Shown here: positions 11,236 to 44,349 of the stretch, piece by piece
Layout: the number at the start of each line of letters is the position of its first letter
Position numbering within the stretch: the first letter of the stretch is position 1
DNA from: an uncultured Poribacteria bacterium
GTDB lineage: Bacteria; Poribacteria; WGA-4E; WGA-3G
NCBI GenBank assembly: GCA_958296135.2
Contig: CATQHZ020000001.1
Coordinates: forward strand, 3,104,001-3,168,000
DNA length: 64,000 nt
Reading direction: 5' to 3'
Position numbers and translations under genes: made by a program
The notes under the pieces: model-generated
The model's database searches: none
What the model was told of the DNA's origin: nothing
The model's input: the letters and a program-made list of their open reading frames with translations, nothing else

Positions 11236-11691
11236 ATGAAAATTGACAGAACTGTTTTACGGGCAGCACTCGCCATAATTGAAAAGGATGCATTAATAGA
11301 ACCTACTTCTATTTATGGTGTGCAAAACATGATGAAGTGTTTTTGTGGCGAAACTGTTCTTATTATGCGGGTGATACCCGAGTCGCCGTGGAACCTAAAC
11401 CAACTTATGGAAGGTATATGTCTTGAGGGCTTAGAAGAAGAAGTAGAGTTGATAGTTTGCGACATAGAGGAGGTTACAACCATCTCCGAAGAAGGCGTGT
11501 CGCAAATTGGATATGTCCTGCACAGCAATCGGTGTGCCCGGGCAGACGAATATCTGCAAGATCTTCTTCAGGCTCCTACCGTTGAGAAAAAGAGTACAGG
11601 CGAAGTGTTCCGGGCAGTGAAAGCGGGAGACACGGTTATAGGTTGGGTAAACGTGAAAACGGGGGAAATCATAGATGAAAGTCCTTTTTGA
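11236..11691 (+). CDS. Hypothetical protein
   Basis: 151-aa ORF, lower GC than neighbours, AAGGAGG upstream; no motif recognised. Confidence 0.6.
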   Translation: MKIDRTVLRAALAIIEKDALIEPTSIYGVQNMMKCFCGETVLIMRVIPESPWNLNQLMEGICLEGLEEEVELIVCDIEEVTTISEEGVSQIGYVLHSNRCARADEYLQDLLQAPTVEKKSTGEVFRAVKAGDTVIGWVNVKTGEIIDESPF

Positions 11692-18431: not shown

Positions 18432-19667
18432 ATGACATTGAAAACGCATTTAATGGCGTTGGACCCGAATAATAAGCAGGCGACGCTGCTTGCACGACAT
18501 TGTGGTTATGCCCGCGTTGCACGTAACCATGCGCTCTCAGATTTCAAGGCAGGACTCGCCGAAAACGAGTGGCGCAGTGGTTACACATTGAACGTTCGCT
18601 TCAACGCCGTGAAACACGAGACATATCCGTGGTGTAAGGAACTCGACCAACGCGCAGCGAAAAACGCTGTGATGCACATTGATGACGCAGTCAAACGGTG
18701 GCGGCGCGGTCAAAATCGATTCCCACGTTATCACACCCGAGCGAGTAGGACTTCCTACCAACCGCATGAACGTGTGAGAATTGACAGGAATCGCGTCAAA
18801 CTGCCGAAGATAGGCTGGGTTCGGATGCGTGAGAAGTTGCGATGGCGTGGCGAGATTCGGCGGTGTGTCGTCTCAAAACGTGCGGGCAGGTGGTTTCTAT
18901 CGGTTCTCGTGAAGGTGGTTTCCGACAGTGCGCCACGTGTGCGTTCTGAGGCAGCACCTATGCGTGTGGTTGGTGTTGATGTAGGTATCAAGACACTAGC
19001 CGTAACCTCCGATGGTGTTGAGTTTGAAAACCCGAAGGCATTGTATCGATACCTGCGGAAGTTGCGGCGTGCGCAGCGTCAGCTCTCTCGTTCGGTTTAC
19101 CGAAGCAGAAACTGGTATCGGAAGCAGTTCCGCGTGCAGAAGATTCACTATCGTATCTGCTGTCTGCGTGAGGATACACATCATAAGGCAAGCACGGCGA
19201 TTGTAAAGTCGGCTGACGTTCTCGGTATCGAGAGTCTTCGTGTGGCGGGCTTGTTGAAAAACCGCCGTCTTGCGAAGGCGTTGAGCGATGCGTCGTTAAG
19301 CGGTTTCCTGACGATGCTTCGGTATAAGGCGGAGGCGCGTGGCGTTGAGATTATCGAAGCACCGTCGAACTTCCCGTCATCGAAGACGTGCAGTGCTTGC
19401 GGGAATAAAAAGACGAAGTTGTCCCTCTCGGAGCGGACATATCACTGCGAGGCATGTGGCGTGGGTATCGACCGCGACTTGAATGCCGCGCATAACTTAA
19501 GAAACCTCGCCGCTAGCTTGACGGAGAGGCAAAACGGCTGCGGAGCGACTATAAGCCCTCATAGTAGGCACACCTCGTGTGTCTCGGAGGCACGCCGCAT
19601 TGAAACAGCAACTACGACAGATAAGAGGACAGGTCAGCTTAGGATAGATTTGTCCAGAGTATCATAA
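18432..19667 (+). CDS. tnpB: RNA-guided endonuclease TnpB (IS607-type)
   Basis: RuvC I VGVDVG, RuvC II IESL, Zn finger CSAC/CEAC, RuvC III DRDLNAA. Confidence 0.95.
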   Translation: MTLKTHLMALDPNNKQATLLARHCGYARVARNHALSDFKAGLAENEWRSGYTLNVRFNAVKHETYPWCKELDQRAAKNAVMHIDDAVKRWRRGQNRFPRYHTRASRTSYQPHERVRIDRNRVKLPKIGWVRMREKLRWRGEIRRCVVSKRAGRWFLSVLVKVVSDSAPRVRSEAAPMRVVGVDVGIKTLAVTSDGVEFENPKALYRYLRKLRRAQRQLSRSVYRSRNWYRKQFRVQKIHYRICCLREDTHHKASTAIVKSADVLGIESLRVAGLLKNRRLAKALSDASLSGFLTMLRYKAEARGVEIIEAPSNFPSSKTCSACGNKKTKLSLSERTYHCEACGVGIDRDLNAAHNLRNLAASLTERQNGCGATISPHSRHTSCVSEARRIETATTTDKRTGQLRIDLSRVS

Positions 19668-19688
19668 GTTCTAGGGAGCGGGAAATTC

Positions 19689-20009
19689 ATGAGCAAGGCG
19701 GTTCTCGGCGGAAGCGATGGAAGAGCGCGGTGCAAGTGCGGGCGGCTCCGTTATCCGCGCTACCCAGTTTGTCCCAAGTGCTATTATGAAGGCGCGCAGA
19801 AACCGACTTCTCTCAACCCGAGAAAATTGTCGCGCGAGGAACTGCTGAAGATGCAGGTTCCTAAACGGATGCTGCTGCCCGACCGGCAGGAACGCATCCG
19901 GTTTTTAGAGCAGCGATATGGCCCGCAATTACGCGGGCAAGACATCCGTTTTATGAAGAATCCGCAGGTGTACGCGCTCTCCGAACAAGCCGGATATCGG
20001 CGGAGATAA
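19689..20009 (+). CDS. Small basic hypothetical protein with CxC...CxxC
   Basis: CKCG...CPKC; its ATG overlaps the restored stop of the upstream nuclease (ATGA) once the IS is removed. Confidence 0.7.
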   Translation: MSKAVLGGSDGRARCKCGRLRYPRYPVCPKCYYEGAQKPTSLNPRKLSREELLKMQVPKRMLLPDRQERIRFLEQRYGPQLRGQDIRFMKNPQVYALSEQAGYRRR

Positions 20010-20105
20010 ATTAGCGGCTCGCTTTCAAAGCGCGCCTGCCGAGTGTCAAAAAACGTTGTTTCTGGCACATACAAAATTTTGCCCAAAAAAAACTTGCAAG
20101 AAGAC

Positions 20106-20134
20106 TTGACAAATAATTGCATATTTGTTAAAAT
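20106..20134 (+). promoter_or_regulatory. Sigma70-like promoter with overlapping inverted repeat (candidate operator)
   Basis: TTGACA-17-TAAAAT; ACAAATA-N6-TATTTGT at 20109-20128. Confidence 0.6.
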
Positions 20135-20165
20135 AACCAACAAATTATTCAAGGAGGAATTCCTC

Positions 20166-21164
20166 ATGTATATTGCAAGATTAGCGTTGATTTGCATCAT
20201 CGCTTTTGCATTGTCAATGGGTGCTCAGGTGATGGCAACCGAATCGACGGATGCCACACCGGACGCGACCGTTGAAAAAGTGACGCTTAGCGTGACAGGC
20301 ATGACGTGAGGCGGCTGTGTTTCTGCAGTGCAGGGTGCACTCAAGAAAGTCGCCGGTGTCACGGAAGTCGTCAGTGTTTCGTCAGCCGACAATCAGGCTG
20401 TCGTGAAGGTAGAGAAGGGGAAAGTTGACACGGCGGCACTTGTCGCAGCCGTCGAAGCAGACCCGCGCTTCAAAGCCGAGGTTGTTATGCCTAAGCCCGC
20501 GGTTGAAGAAGTGACGCTGAAAGTGACAGGGATGACGTGAGGTGCGTGCACTGCTAAGGTGCAGGATGCACTTGGAAAAGTCGCCGGTGTCACGGAAGTC
20601 ATCAGCGTTTCTACAGACAGCAATACGGCTGTGGTGAAGGTTGAAAAAGACAAAGTCGCCGCTGCCGATTTGACAACCGCTATCAAAGCCGCAGGGTTTA
20701 CCGCGGAAGTGATGCCTATCGCCGAAGTGACGCTGAAAGTGACAGGGATGACGTGAGGTGCGTGCACTACTAAGGTGCAGGATGCACTTGGAAAAGTCGC
20801 CGGTGTCATGGAAGTCATCAGTGTCTCCACAGACAGTAACACGGCTGTGGTGAAGGTTGAAAAAGGCAAGGTCGCGGATGCTGATTTGACAACCGCTGTC
20901 AAAGCCGCAGGATTCACCGCGGAAGTTGTCAAGCCGGAAGTTGAAGAGGTGACGCTGAAAGTAACAGGGATGATGTGTGATGCATGTCCCGCCAAGGTAG
21001 AAGCCGCCCTCGGTAAGGTGGACGGTGTCGCCGAGGTTGTCAGCGTTTCGATGGCGGACAGCACGGCTGTGGTGAAGATCGAGAAGGGGAAAGTGACGAC
21101 AGCTGCCCTCATTGAGGCAGTTGCTGGCGCGCACCCGGGTTTCAAAGCGGAAGTCGCCAAATAG
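20166..21164 (+). CDS. Secreted protein with four HMA domains, three with in-frame TGA (putative selenocysteine, GMT-U-x-x-C), 332 aa
   Basis: SD AAGGAGG, signal peptide, four ORF pieces in one frame; TGA at 20307, 20538 and 20754 at the first Cys position; domain 4 has GMMCDAC. Confidence 0.9.
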
Positions 21165-21174
21165 CGCGGCACGG

Positions 21175-21200
21175 AAGGATGGGCTTTGCCCGTCTTTTCT
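21175..21200 (+). terminator. Intrinsic terminator after the HMA gene
   Basis: AAGGATGGGC-TTT-GCCCGTCTT followed by a T-rich run. Confidence 0.6.
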
Positions 21201-21647
21201 TAGTTTGCTGGTAGGCGCGCTTTCAAAGCGCGCCTACCGAAATTCTGGAAAGGAACGCGTTCAGATTCAAGCGGGTGCCTACATGACGTTCAAAGATATT
21301 CTTCCGCTCATGTTCCCGGTGAGAGCGGTTCATCCGCAGGTGCAAGCCTGGTCTGGCAACCTTGAGCGCGCTGTTTTTCATCTCAGGGACGAGGTTCCGC
21401 CGGAAGTAGAGTGGGTGTGGTTCTTCCATCACGAGGACAGCTGCATCTATAAATTTCAAAGCGTTCGCGGCATCCATCATCAATGGAAAATGGCCGAGGT
21501 CTGCGATGCTGGCACACTGCCGAAGTTCGTAAATCAGAAGGCTTTTGCGGAGATACCGGCGGTGTTTCCGCAAAATAAGCGGTAGGCGCGGTTTCTCAGC
21601 GTCAATCCCGTAGGCGCGGTTTGAAATCGCGCCTACGGGGTTTTCTG

Positions 21648-22505
21648 TCACTGCTGCGCGTAGAGCGGGTTTTCAAGCAGCGACTGTACCTCGTAAATTG
21701 AACCCTTCTTCTCCGAATAGGGTTCCGGCATCCGCACGGGTGCCGCAACCATGCGCGGCTGGTTCGTCGGTTCACCACGGATGATAAAGTCGTTGAAGCT
21801 ATCCCAATCCGGAATCCCTTTTAGCGGCCACGCATCCACAGCGCAATACTGGAACAGGAGTAAACGCCGCGGCTTATCGGAGGTATTCGGTGCCGAACCG
21901 TGCAACGCTCGGACATGGTGGATGGAAATCCCGCCGGCTTTCAGTTCAACCGGTACCGCTTCCTCCGGCGTGAAATCGGCCTCGGTCACCGCACCGATAA
22001 ACGCGCCGTTTTGGTGATGATTCAAGGTGGGCCCCTTGTGGGAACCGGGGAGTATCATCAGTGCCCCGTTCTCCACCGTCATGTCATCAATGACAACCCC
22101 GACAGCGAGCAGATCATCGTTCGTGTGCGGATAAAACGCCCAATCCTGATGCCATTCCACCGGACTGCCAAACGCCGGATACTTCATATTCAGTTTATGT
22201 CCGTTATACCGGAGCCCGGGCCCGATGAGCTGCTCAACGATGTCCAGAATCTTCGGGTGTCGCAAGGTTCCGTCGTAGACTGAGTGGTAGAGCCCCGGGT
22301 TTTTGATGCGGCGCACACGCGGGTTCGCGGGGGTGTGCCCCGGCTCCAGATCGAAGATGTCGGTATGTTCTGTAACTTCCCTGGATTTCTCGACAAATTC
22401 ATCGGTGACCCGGCGGAGTGCTACGACTTCATCGGCTGTCAGCACTGCTTCAACGCCGAGGTAGCCGTTTTCATTGTAAAAACCGAGTTGTTCTTGAGTG
22501 AGCAT
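21648..22505 (-). CDS. PhyH-family dioxygenase
   Basis: KLNMK, WHQDW, LPGSH, LHGSAPNTS..PRR. Confidence 0.92.
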   Translation of the reverse strand: MLTQEQLGFYNENGYLGVEAVLTADEVVALRRVTDEFVEKSREVTEHTDIFDLEPGHTPANPRVRRIKNPGLYHSVYDGTLRHPKILDIVEQLIGPGLRYNGHKLNMKYPAFGSPVEWHQDWAFYPHTNDDLLAVGVVIDDMTVENGALMILPGSHKGPTLNHHQNGAFIGAVTEADFTPEEAVPVELKAGGISIHHVRALHGSAPNTSDKPRRLLLFQYCAVDAWPLKGIPDWDSFNDFIIRGEPTNQPRMVAAPVRMPEPYSEKKGSIYEVQSLLENPLYAQQ

Positions 22506-24069: not shown

Positions 24070-24158
24070 GTTACCGTTGGGGGCGAGACTGCTAGGCGCG
24101 GCTTCCCGCCGTGTCTCTCGCCCCACCTATCTAGCAGCAGGTGACAACCAACGGGAAC
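24070..24158 (+). ncRNA. Structured 5' leader RNA of tnpB, copy 2
   Basis: Covaries with 18327-18420. Confidence 0.6.
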
Positions 24159-24167
24159 GGTGACGCT

Positions 24168-25391
24168 ATGGCACTACGAGCCCAGAAGATAGCACTCCAT
24201 CCAACTGAGGAACAGGTCGAGGCATTTAACCTGCATGTGGCATTCGCACGCGCTGCATATAATGCCGCGCATTCTGATTGGAACGCCGACCGCCGTAACT
24301 CCCTCTACGATTTGAAGAAAATCTTCAACTCACGGAAGCGGCAGGTGTTCCCCGAATTCGCCGCGTGTTCTCAAAACGCAGGCAAGAATGCTATCCACGC
24401 TTTCGGTGATGCTATCGCCAGATACAAATCGGGACAGAATGGTGCGCCCAAACGGAAGACGCATAAATCCACACCTGCTTTTCAGATGGACAATGGCGTG
24501 GATACCGTCAAAATAACGGAGGACAGCAAACATGTCGTTCTCCCGACAATTGGACAGGTTAGGTTGCATGAACCCCCTCGATGGACAGGTGAAGTTCGCC
24601 GTGCTTTCGTCAAGCGAATCGCACATCGTTGGTATCTCAGCATCCTTGTCGACGTTAATGAACCGGAACCGCCCGACACGTCAGCACTGCCCCCTGCAGG
24701 TTGTGATGTCGGCATCTCTGCCCTCGCCACGATGGACGATGGCACTGTCTATGAAAATCCGCGTGCCTTGCGCGTCAATGAACGCAAACTACGCCGCGCC
24801 AATAAGGCACTCTCCCGCAAGACGTTCCTGAGCAAAAACTGGTGGCAGGCGAAGGAATGCCTCGCCCGCCTGCATGCCCGTATCGCCAATGTCCGAACCG
24901 ATGCGCATCATCAGGCAACACATCGCATCCTGCAAGGTATTTCGGCACTTGGCATCGAAAGCCTCACCGTGAAAGGTTTGATGAAAAATCGCAAGCTGAG
25001 CAAGGCACTCGCGGACGCAAGCCTCGGTGGTTTTCTCGTCAAACTTAAATACAAAGCGGTGCGCCGGGGTATCCGTATTGTGTCAGCAGATGAGTTCTGG
25101 CCGTCAACACAGCGATGCAGTTCTTGTGGATACATTAAGCGTGGTGAATTCAAGCTGTCCCTGAAGGACAGAGAATACCATTGCGGTGTGTGTGGTTTCA
25201 TAGAAGATAGAGACGTTAACGCAGCTATAAACCTTCGACAGCTCGCCTCCAGCACGGAGGAGAGTCTAAACGCCTGTGGAGAAGCCGTAACACCAACTGC
25301 GGTTGGCTGGCATCACAACCCGCGTGTGCGCGGAAGAAGCAGGAAACCGCTAACCTCTCAGAGACTCATAGACTTCGCACATGCTAGATAA
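24168..25391 (+). CDS. tnpB: RNA-guided endonuclease TnpB (IS607-type)
   Basis: GCDVG, IESL, CSSC/CGVC, DRDVNAA; start MALRAQKIAL aligns with element 1. Confidence 0.95.
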   Translation: MALRAQKIALHPTEEQVEAFNLHVAFARAAYNAAHSDWNADRRNSLYDLKKIFNSRKRQVFPEFAACSQNAGKNAIHAFGDAIARYKSGQNGAPKRKTHKSTPAFQMDNGVDTVKITEDSKHVVLPTIGQVRLHEPPRWTGEVRRAFVKRIAHRWYLSILVDVNEPEPPDTSALPPAGCDVGISALATMDDGTVYENPRALRVNERKLRRANKALSRKTFLSKNWWQAKECLARLHARIANVRTDAHHQATHRILQGISALGIESLTVKGLMKNRKLSKALADASLGGFLVKLKYKAVRRGIRIVSADEFWPSTQRCSSCGYIKRGEFKLSLKDREYHCGVCGFIEDRDVNAAINLRQLASSTEESLNACGEAVTPTAVGWHHNPRVRGRSRKPLTSQRLIDFAHAR

Positions 25392-43455: not shown

Positions 43456-44349
43456 ATGGAAATCGTTGAATACACCCCCGAGTTGCTGGAGCCGATGACA
43501 GCCTGCTACAACCGCCTCACCACGGATGTACCGCACAGCTATCCGGTAACCGAAGCGGAATTCGGAGAAGAACTGTCTAGTGCGCCACCGGGGGGACACC
43601 CTGACATCTTTTTTATTTCACAGCATACTTTTGTTGCCACATCGGACGACACTGTGCTTGGATTTGTCCAAGCGCGCGTTGACGAATTAAGACGACACAA
43701 GTGCAATCTCGGCATCATCAGGTTTCTCGGCTATCTCCCCGGTGAACGCCGTACGGGACAGGCCCTGCTTGAGAAGGCAGAGGCCCACTTAAAAATGCAA
43801 GCCGCTACTCGCATCGTTGCTGTGCCGCAAAAATACCGCTACCGCTTCTACCACTTCGGGCACGCTTACTTATCCAATGCACTTGCACAGGTGCAGGCAC
43901 TCCTCGCCTTCAACGGCTACGAACGCACCGCCGGCGAGGTGTTTTTGGCGTGGAAGAATTACGATGTTACGCCAACACCGCTCGCGCAACCTTTAGAAAT
44001 CACTGTTGAATGGGAAGAGGGAAGAGGCAAACTTCCAAACTGCACCGTGCGCGGGTGCCGCGCTGGCGAAGAAGTCGGCGTTTGCGAATCGCTCTGCGGC
44101 GGTGAATTTTCAAGCCACTCCGACGCGCAAGACTGGTGCCATACCATGTGGCTCGGCATTGAAGACGAATTCCAAGGGCAAGGCATCGGCCGTTATTTGC
44201 TCCAACGCGCGCTTCAGGAAATGCGCAAAGTTGGATACCGCCACGCGCTCATTAGCACGGCATGGGATAATCATCGCGCCTTCCTCTTTTATAGCAACTT
44301 CGGCTACCGAGTCACGGATTGGACGTATGAATTTTCAAAATCTCTGTGA
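43456..44349 (+). CDS. Tandem GNAT acetyltransferase
   Basis: FQGQGIGRYLL, N.RA..FY...GY. Confidence 0.88.
   Translation: MEIVEYTPELLEPMTACYNRLTTDVPHSYPVTEAEFGEELSSAPPGGHPDIFFISQHTFVATSDDTVLGFVQARVDELRRHKCNLGIIRFLGYLPGERRTGQALLEKAEAHLKMQAATRIVAVPQKYRYRFYHFGHAYLSNALAQVQALLAFNGYERTAGEVFLAWKNYDVTPTPLAQPLEITVEWEEGRGKLPNCTVRGCRAGEEVGVCESLCGGEFSSHSDAQDWCHTMWLGIEDEFQGQGIGRYLLQRALQEMRKVGYRHALISTAWDNHRAFLFYSNFGYRVTDWTYEFSKSL

Follow-up and report, generated by a model that had tools for sequence, protein, structure and literature searches.

A hidden tetra-HMA gene with three in-frame UGA codons points to a family of exported selenoproteins in Poribacteria

We analyzed a 64,000-nucleotide stretch of DNA from an uncultured Poribacteria bacterium (contig CATQHZ020000001.1, positions 3,104,001 to 3,168,000), referred to below as the window, and describe within it a gene for a protein of four tandem HMA domains, here called the tetra-HMA gene. 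When TGA is read through, positions 20166-21164 of the + strand, on which all features of this gene lie, give a single coding sequence of 332 codons that closes with the stop codon TAG at 21162-21164. Genetic-code table 11 cuts the same frame into four open reading frame (ORF) pieces, at 20043-20309, 20328-20540, 20559-20756 and 20775-21164. The Shine-Dalgarno sequence AGGAGG was read at 20152-20157, 8 nt upstream of the ATG. By consensus match alone, a sigma-70-like promoter is placed at 20106-20134 (TTGACA, a 17-nt spacer and TAAAAT, the -10 hexamer being preceded by TG; 11 of 12 positions agree with the consensus), and a terminator-like hairpin at 21173-21199, with a T-rich tail that extends to 21209. 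With a promoter-like site upstream and a terminator-like hairpin after the stop, the four ORF pieces share one apparent transcription unit.

The first 24 residues (20166-20237) form a predicted signal peptide. In the sequence it shows a single basic residue, a hydrophobic core and, preceding the predicted cleavage site, V-M-A, without a lipobox; the orthologues have similar N-termini, and an AlphaFold2 model places a helix at residues 2-18 and a disordered stretch at 18-33. Four stretches then match the Pfam HMA model (PF00403; 118.2 bits vs a gathering score of 24.8), and they correspond to residues 36-107 (20271-20486), 113-182 (20502-20711), 185-255 (20718-20930) and 259-330 (20940-21155). 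The original prediction, which had been drawn from the letters of the window, that one frame with a Shine-Dalgarno site and a signal peptide lies hidden here was borne out in each of these parts. Each of the first three domains carries a TGA at the first Cys position of the metal-binding loop G-M-T-C-x-x-C, namely at residue 48 (20307-20309), residue 125 (20538-20540) and residue 197 (20754-20756), and we call these domains selenocysteine (Sec) type. The fourth domain is of Cys type, with the loop GMMCDAC and TGT at 20976-20978. The three TGAs thus stand exactly where they had been predicted, and the fourth loop carries the predicted Cys.

After each TGA comes a hairpin of the form GTGCA-GG(G/A)-TGCAC, the loops of which begin at 20333, 20564 and 20780, with a gap of 23 nt between UGA and loop. 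We refer to these hairpins as putative selenocysteine insertion sequence (SECIS) elements 1 to 3. SECIS 1 occupies 20310-20354 and consists of a lower stem (GGCGGCT at 20310-20316, paired with AGTCGCC at 20348-20354) and the apical hairpin AGUGCA-GGG-UGCACU at 20327-20341. The apical hairpins of SECIS 2 (20557-20573) and SECIS 3 (20773-20789) both read AGGUGCA-GGA-UGCACUU. Domain 4 has no hairpin, and AAGGTAGAAGCCGCCCTC stands at the corresponding place; the earlier proposal of one SECIS-like hairpin per TGA, with a lower stem in the first copy and the Cys-type domain as an internal control, agrees with these sequences and positions. Contigs from four runs of one sample cover the gene with zero differing letters, and contig pieces span TGA 1 in four of the four runs, TGA 2 in two and TGA 3 in one; since this sample is probably the assembly's own source, the comparison confirms the letters alone.

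Elsewhere in the window, TGA terminates 15 of the 53 open frames of at least 200 codons, some of which are antisense shadows, and the neighbouring PhyH gene is among those it closes. TGA is therefore an ordinary stop codon in this genome, as had been predicted from three frame ends: those at 44349 and 56304 are among the 15, and 11689-11691 is likewise TGA. The host genome (5.19 Mb, 94.7% complete) also encodes the machinery for Sec. A profile search recovered selB (317.5 bits vs a cut-off of 242), selA (596 bits) and selD (350.6 bits), and a tRNA-Sec with anticodon TCA (78 bits) directly adjoins selB. The selD gene (G000:C1:2864299-2865270, locus L011) carries an in-frame TGA of its own, followed by the hairpin GCUCC-GGG-GGAGC. 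The search of the genome for selA, selB, selC and selD that had been proposed along with the prediction thus returned all four.

HMA homologues were found in 41 of 41 related genomes, with an in-frame TGA in nearly all of them. Most Poribacteria have a pair of single-HMA genes of the U-x-x-C type (U for Sec), of about 115-145 residues and with lipoprotein-type leaders. This pair is syntenic with the tetra-HMA gene, lying between a GIY-YIG gene and a PhyH gene, with a glycosyltransferase gene next. At E <= 1e-35, 9 of the phylum's 176 genomes, from 3 of its 31 genera, have the multi-domain form. With TGA written as U, the domain order of the multi-domain orthologues is UUCCC within the same genus, UUUC in three genomes, UUUCC in one and UUUUC in two (G146 and G148), and their terminal domains carry Cys. 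The orthologues keep both frame and sequence on either side of each TGA, also in the N-terminal part before the first one, and they keep the full metal loop G-M-T-x-x-x-C as well. TGC or TGT takes the place of TGA in a syntenic pair of genes in one genome (G027) and in one gene of another (G036), all of family f4; the alternation of TGA with Cys codons, which had been put forward as a check on homologues, is therefore seen not only between domains but also from genome to genome. SelB is present in G027 despite the Cys forms at its locus, while in G036 (80% complete) no SelB was seen, though that genome has other TGA-containing HMA matches.

Two side observations concern the composition of these arrays. 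Every one of the nine multi-domain genes begins with its Sec domains and ends with its Cys domains (UUUC, UUCCC, UUUCC and UUUUC), and the number of Cys domains ranges from one to at least five among close relatives.

The affinities of the four domains differ. Domain 1 is nearest to single-domain genes with an EADPRF tail, which its own tail resembles, and shares up to 79% identity with them. For domains 2 and 3 the nearest type is the one with a GF(S/T)A tail, at 76-77% identity. Between themselves these two share 90% identity (TRF period 216, 92% matches), and domain 3 is a recent copy of domain 2. Domain 4 stands further off, with at most 66% identity to single-domain genes. Given these affinities to two paralogue types, the tetra-domain gene looks like a fusion of the paralogue pair followed by an internal duplication that would have copied TGA and hairpin together.

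The hairpin was then followed across the family. HMA loops were gathered from loci L021-L081 with the pattern G-[MLIVF]-x-[UC]-x-x-C, which had to be free of stops between residues -10 and +55 and to have a beta-strand-like [VIL]-x-[VIL] within the nine residues before it, a filter that loses some true domains. It yielded 104 Sec-type domains from about 60 loci, 90 of them distinct, and 89 were aligned after one false positive was dropped; all 89 are of the UxxC type. Four synonymous sites within the hairpin are fixed in this alignment. Val is encoded by GTG, Gln by CAG and Ala by GCA in 89/89 sequences each, and the third hairpin codon ends in T in 88/89, whether it encodes Asp, Ala, Gly or Ser. 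At other Val columns of the same alignment, GTG is used in 0/78, 2/86 and 28/88 sequences. RNAalifold picks the helix 30-35/39-44, the columns of which are paired in 87-89 of the 89 sequences (the inner pairs, 31-35/39-43, in 88-89).

The Cys-type domains behave differently. Within the nine multi-domain genes, two of which (L056 and L091) appear to come from one genome, the exact stem GTGCAGG(A/G)TGCAC is present in 28/28 Sec-type domains and is kept in 0/8 Cys-type domains that encode the same peptide, V-Q-D-A-L; all of the latter have synonymous changes that break the stem, namely GTA in five, GTT in two and GAC in one. The hairpin has decayed likewise in the Cys forms of G027 and G036.

The same element occurs after other UGA codons in the host. 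A search of the 5.19-Mb genome for TGA-N(12-24)-GTGCAGNNTGCAC gave eight matches at five distinct UGA sites, and a reversed control pattern gave one match. All five sites are in-frame TGAs of HMA or UGSC genes: three in the tetra-HMA gene, one in a PSCyt1-WD40-HMA protein and one in a UGSC-family selenoprotein. The last (NF041046, 150.6 bits vs a cut-off of 125; G000:C1:1067748, locus L082:1216-1740(+)) has UCGUGCA-GUA-UGCACGA after its UGA, the same apical motif at a shorter spacing, so the same apical element is used by a curated selenoprotein family in the same cell. The PSCyt1-WD40-HMA protein is a secreted protein of 519 residues, encoded outside the window (locus L041:1498-3054(-); HMA part at G000:C1:3466055-3466270(-)), in which a planctomycete cytochrome c domain (PSCyt1) and a WD40 propeller are combined with an HMA domain at the C-terminus. 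In this HMA domain an in-frame TGA takes the place of the first Cys, and a GUGCA-GGA-UGCAC hairpin comes after it. Most of the 41 related genomes have frames of about 530-590 residues with a single TGA. The top of the E. coli fdhF SECIS, UGCA-GGUC-UGCA, also resembles the top of the window hairpins.

According to passages of a 2026 review (PMC13188914), the bacterial SECIS (bSECIS) model calls for an apical loop of 3-9 nt, an upper stem of 4-16 bp, a G within the first two loop positions, a distance of 16-37 nt from the UGA and a minimum free energy of at most -7.5 kcal/mol. The window hairpins have 3-nt loops (GGG or GGA), stems of 6-7 bp and a spacing of 23 nt, all within range. SECIS 1 lies inside the minimum-free-energy fold, with a mean pair probability of 0.92. 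Once the first 15 nt, the footprint of a decoding ribosome, are taken away, the minimum-free-energy fold of each of the three window copies contains the hairpin, as does that of 70/89 Sec-type vs 2/12 Cys-type domains across the alignment. Its energy is -8.9 to -12.6 kcal/mol with the first 15 nt masked and the downstream context included, and -14.5 to -21.1 kcal/mol when constrained within 60 nt. An Rfam scan of 19000-22500 at E <= 10 returned no SECIS family and seven weak, unrelated matches.

As the SelB site we also considered, and set aside, a long stem beginning at the UGA itself, the apical loop of which would lie at +15 to +19. Two invariant synonymous bases, the A of GCA and the G of CAG, stay unpaired in it, the invariant T is paired in just 68 of 89 sequences, and its loop is unconserved. 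The stem also incorporates bases that are covered by the ribosome decoding the UGA and is excluded while the ribosome is on that codon. This stem may compete with the hairpin in free mRNA, as judged from the fold models.

The encoded protein is built of HMA domains in its fold as well as in its sequence. The AlphaFold2 model, computed from an alignment of eight orthologues (mean predicted local distance difference test score, pLDDT, 81.1), has four beta-alpha-beta-beta-alpha-beta units, with residues 48, 125 and 197 in the loop between strand 1 and helix 1. Foldseek matched it to solved HMA domains at template modelling (TM) scores of 0.8-0.93 overall, among them MerP (PDB 1osd; TM 0.91, 39% identity), CopZ (6ff2; TM 0.93) and the tandem metal-binding domains of ATP7B and B. 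subtilis CopA. A PDB sequence search agreed with these matches, and the closest solved structures are Cu and Hg binders. Fold and motif together make a periplasmic soft-metal buffer, for Cu(I) or more general, the best inference as to what the protein would do.

Several known systems resemble parts of this protein. MerP (PDB 1osd, 1afi), the best single-domain structural match, is likewise an exported HMA domain, but it has one domain with Cys alone and belongs to a mer operon; membership in the MerP family (TIGR02052) was rejected, with 38.3 bits for a single domain vs 92.55 and neither MerT nor a MerA above its cut-off found in the 94.7% complete genome. The Cu(I) P-type ATPases (ATP7A/B and the N-terminus of B. 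subtilis CopA), which gave the best two-domain matches, have serial HMA domains with short linkers, but these are cytosolic, pump-attached and all Cys. Assignment to the cytosolic copper chaperone CopZ (NF033795, NF033794 and NF047957), a single domain of about 68 residues, was set aside, at 37.9-55.9 bits vs cut-offs of 85-95 and with a predicted signal peptide present.

Among selenoproteins, NF041115, a UxxU metal-binding (seleno)protein, is likewise of HMA type with Sec at the metal-loop Cys, and its model matches every tetra-HMA domain. It differs in its UxxU motif, whereas the proteins described here have UxxC, are predicted to be secreted, and are tandem arrays with three or four separate Sec sites and SECIS elements; assignment to it was also rejected, since domain 1 with its leader scored 47.6 bits and a single-domain relative 49.5 vs a cut-off of 95. 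No curated NCBIfam equivalog is reached by one domain, and scores above cut-off for the whole protein sum four domains (162 for NF041115). Sec in an HMA-type CxxC is also found in a cation-transporting P-type ATPase selenoprotein (UxxC, one Sec), as listed in the passages cited above (PMC13188914), and in the MerT/CopZ fusion-like heavy-metal transport selenoprotein NF045683 (113 bits vs a cut-off of 375 for the whole tetra-HMA protein). Both are membrane transporters with one Sec, whereas the window protein is a predicted soluble exported array.

We suggest that the tetra-HMA gene very probably is a monocistronic gene for an exported protein of four tandem ferredoxin-like HMA domains, in which UGA codons 48, 125 and 197 are decoded as Sec through in-frame SECIS elements, which binds soft metals and which arose by fusion and duplication. 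SelB and Sec-tRNA(Sec) would be recruited by GUGCA-GGN-UGCAC, with one or two extra pairs, within the coding sequence 23 nt past each UGA. One SECIS per UGA would follow the bacterial rule, and the hairpin would be encoded by the helix-1 peptide V-Q-x-A-L. Export by the Sec secretion pathway and cleavage of the signal peptide would then give a periplasmic protein, three domains of which would offer a selenolate-thiolate site (U-x-x-C) and one a dithiolate (C-x-x-C). Of the soft metals that might be bound, Cu(I) is the most likely, with Hg(II), Ag(I) and Cd(II) possible. In a few Poribacteria lineages the two single-HMA genes of the locus would have fused; domains would have been duplicated with their TGA and SECIS jointly, and a Cys-type terminal domain added. 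The decoding of the three UGAs as Sec, the core of the original prediction, is supported by the Sec machinery of the host, by the conservation of TGA in orthologues and by the fixed synonymous sites of the hairpin. Sec insertion itself, export, and the ligand and identity of the metal are what we infer from these observations.

Several observations weigh against parts of this proposal. Three UGAs in series are expected to cut the yield of full-length protein. In free 60-nt RNA the hairpins of SECIS 2 and 3 have a probability of 0.02-0.08 (0.02 for copy 2), and the free RNA of both copies favours a different fold, in which the UGA region pairs with the 5' arm; this alternative UGA-pairing stem is 90% pairable over the alignment. 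The 60-nt fold z-scores are weak (-0.8 to -1.5), the bare 22-nt apical hairpin reaches -6.3 to -7.2 kcal/mol vs the bSECIS criterion of -7.5, and the loop lies 4-6 nt farther from the UGA than in selD, the UGSC gene and E. coli fdhF. The stem is invariant and so shows no compensatory covariation: one pair changed on both sides, and covariation measures were not above those of shuffled controls. The case for the hairpin therefore lies in synonymous-site fixation among related sequences, and such fixation could in principle stem from another sequence-specific constraint or from homogenization of repeats. As to metals, the neighbouring genes (GIY-YIG, PhyH, glycosyltransferase and IS605 OrfB) are uninformative, and in the host genome at its 94.7% completeness MerT was not found and nothing scored above the cut-off for MerA (best MerA-like match 353 bits vs 454), so a mer-type role is unsupported.

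A second possibility accepts Sec decoding and export but takes the U-x-x-C motifs as redox centres rather than metal ligands, working through a selenenylsulfide/selenol couple in a periplasmic oxidoreductase or in a scavenger of peroxides or electrophiles. Most prokaryotic UxxC/CxxU selenoproteins are thought to be redox proteins, again according to passages of the 2026 review (PMC13188914). The periplasm is oxidizing, and the gene has no metal-handling neighbours. Both sequence and fold mark the domains as HMA and not thioredoxin-like, the full G-M-T-x-x-x-C loop is conserved, and the nearest solved structures bind Cu or Hg. We therefore regard a redox role as distinctly unlikely.

It is far less likely still that the TGAs are true stops in a decayed gene or between four small ORFs, with the hairpins as functionless sequence carried by the repeats. 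TGA is indeed an ordinary stop in this genome, gene callers do split the frame, and the fold z-scores are weak, as noted above. Against this, TGA falls exactly at the Cys codon in the 104 domains (89 distinct true domains) from about 60 loci and many genomes, and at the same Cys in two further gene architectures, with frame and sequence conserved on either side of every TGA. A piece started at GTG would also have neither strand 1 nor the metal loop. The genome's Sec machinery is complete, and the synonymous constraint is restricted to the hairpin.

Animal selenoprotein P is secreted and contains several Sec, as is predicted for the tetra-HMA protein; the SECIS elements of selenoprotein P lie in the 3' untranslated region and serve many UGAs, whereas the window gene has an in-frame hairpin for each UGA, and the two proteins have no sequence relation. 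That the tetra-HMA protein is mainly a functionally similar store or carrier of selenium, with metal binding secondary, is suggested by its predicted export, by three Sec (up to four in relatives) and by the fast shifts of domain number between genomes, but it is most improbable given only 3-4 Sec per roughly 330-400 residues, every one of them in a canonical metal-binding loop, the single-Sec lipoproteins that are the ancestral forms, and the lack of homology to selenoprotein P.

Two IS605-type OrfB/TnpB genes are present in the window, at 18432-19667(+) and 24141-25391(+). By the insertion of the first, and with an unassigned 106-residue ORF (19689-20009) also lying there, the GIY-YIG gene is set apart from the HMA gene; in the relatives these two are direct neighbours. 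As a separate observation, a REP-like (repetitive extragenic palindromic) palindrome, AGGCGCG(C/G)TTTCAAA(G/C)CGCGCCT, is dispersed between genes, with 11 matches in the window at no more than two mismatches vs 0.01 expected. Copies lie on both sides of the HMA gene (20020-20037 and 21213-21235) and also at 1976, 8641, 15445, 17332, 21612, 56292 and 61715, and they show compensatory C/G swaps at stem positions.

As had been predicted, standard annotation misses the gene, and database entries for its relatives either break off at the TGA or translate it as Trp. The nearest proteins in the databases are C-terminal fragments with two to at least five Cys domains, and seven of the seven that were fetched start with M-Q-(A/D/G)-A-L, that is, at the GTG within the SECIS stem. 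Single-domain relatives are either cut just before the TGA, as in an 81-residue NCBI/ENA entry ending in ...VTGMT, or given Trp at the Sec position (GMTWGxC). The Trp stems from calls on short contigs, which suggests that such contigs were called under a code in which TGA encodes Trp. None of these entries, fragments or single-domain relatives, carries a name. On this sequence evidence, we conclude that the tetra-HMA gene is a genuine, unannotated selenoprotein gene within a phylum-wide family of predicted exported single-HMA selenoproteins.

Passages of the 2026 review (PMC13188914) count 119 prokaryotic selenoprotein families and subfamilies with a maximum of 2-3 Sec each, and the HMA-related entries there are the cation-transporting ATPase already mentioned and NF041115 (UxxU, two Sec). 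Word searches of the literature turned up no account of HMA selenoproteins that are exported or arranged in tandem, in Poribacteria or elsewhere, although supplementary lists could hold them. HMA selenoproteins are thus known, and exported tandem arrays with three or four Sec are a new form; that number is at or above the maximum in the inventory as given in those passages (PMC13188914).

The exported single-domain and tandem UxxC HMA proteins would make up an unlisted subfamily of the prokaryotic selenoproteome, from an uncultivated phylum of sponge symbionts. Their tandem repeats provide a natural test bed for bacterial Sec decoding, with several UGA/SECIS units per mRNA beside a Cys domain in which the hairpin is broken though the encoded peptide is the same. 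They also expose a systematic annotation error, by which entries end at the TGA, begin at the GTG of the SECIS or give Trp. A selenolate-thiolate HMA site would be of chemical interest for its affinity and exchange rates with Cu(I), Hg(II) and Ag(I). A more far-reaching idea, which we offer tentatively and hold to be doubtful, is that in this phylum-wide family of exported HMA selenoproteins, with arrays of up to four Sec, one mRNA gives metal buffers of one, two or four domains depending on selenium: with Sec domains first and Cys domains last, selenium supply would set how far the ribosome reads. If this is true, the family would include the highest Sec count reported for a bacterial protein and would provide a sponge symbiont with a selenium-gated, modular metal sponge.

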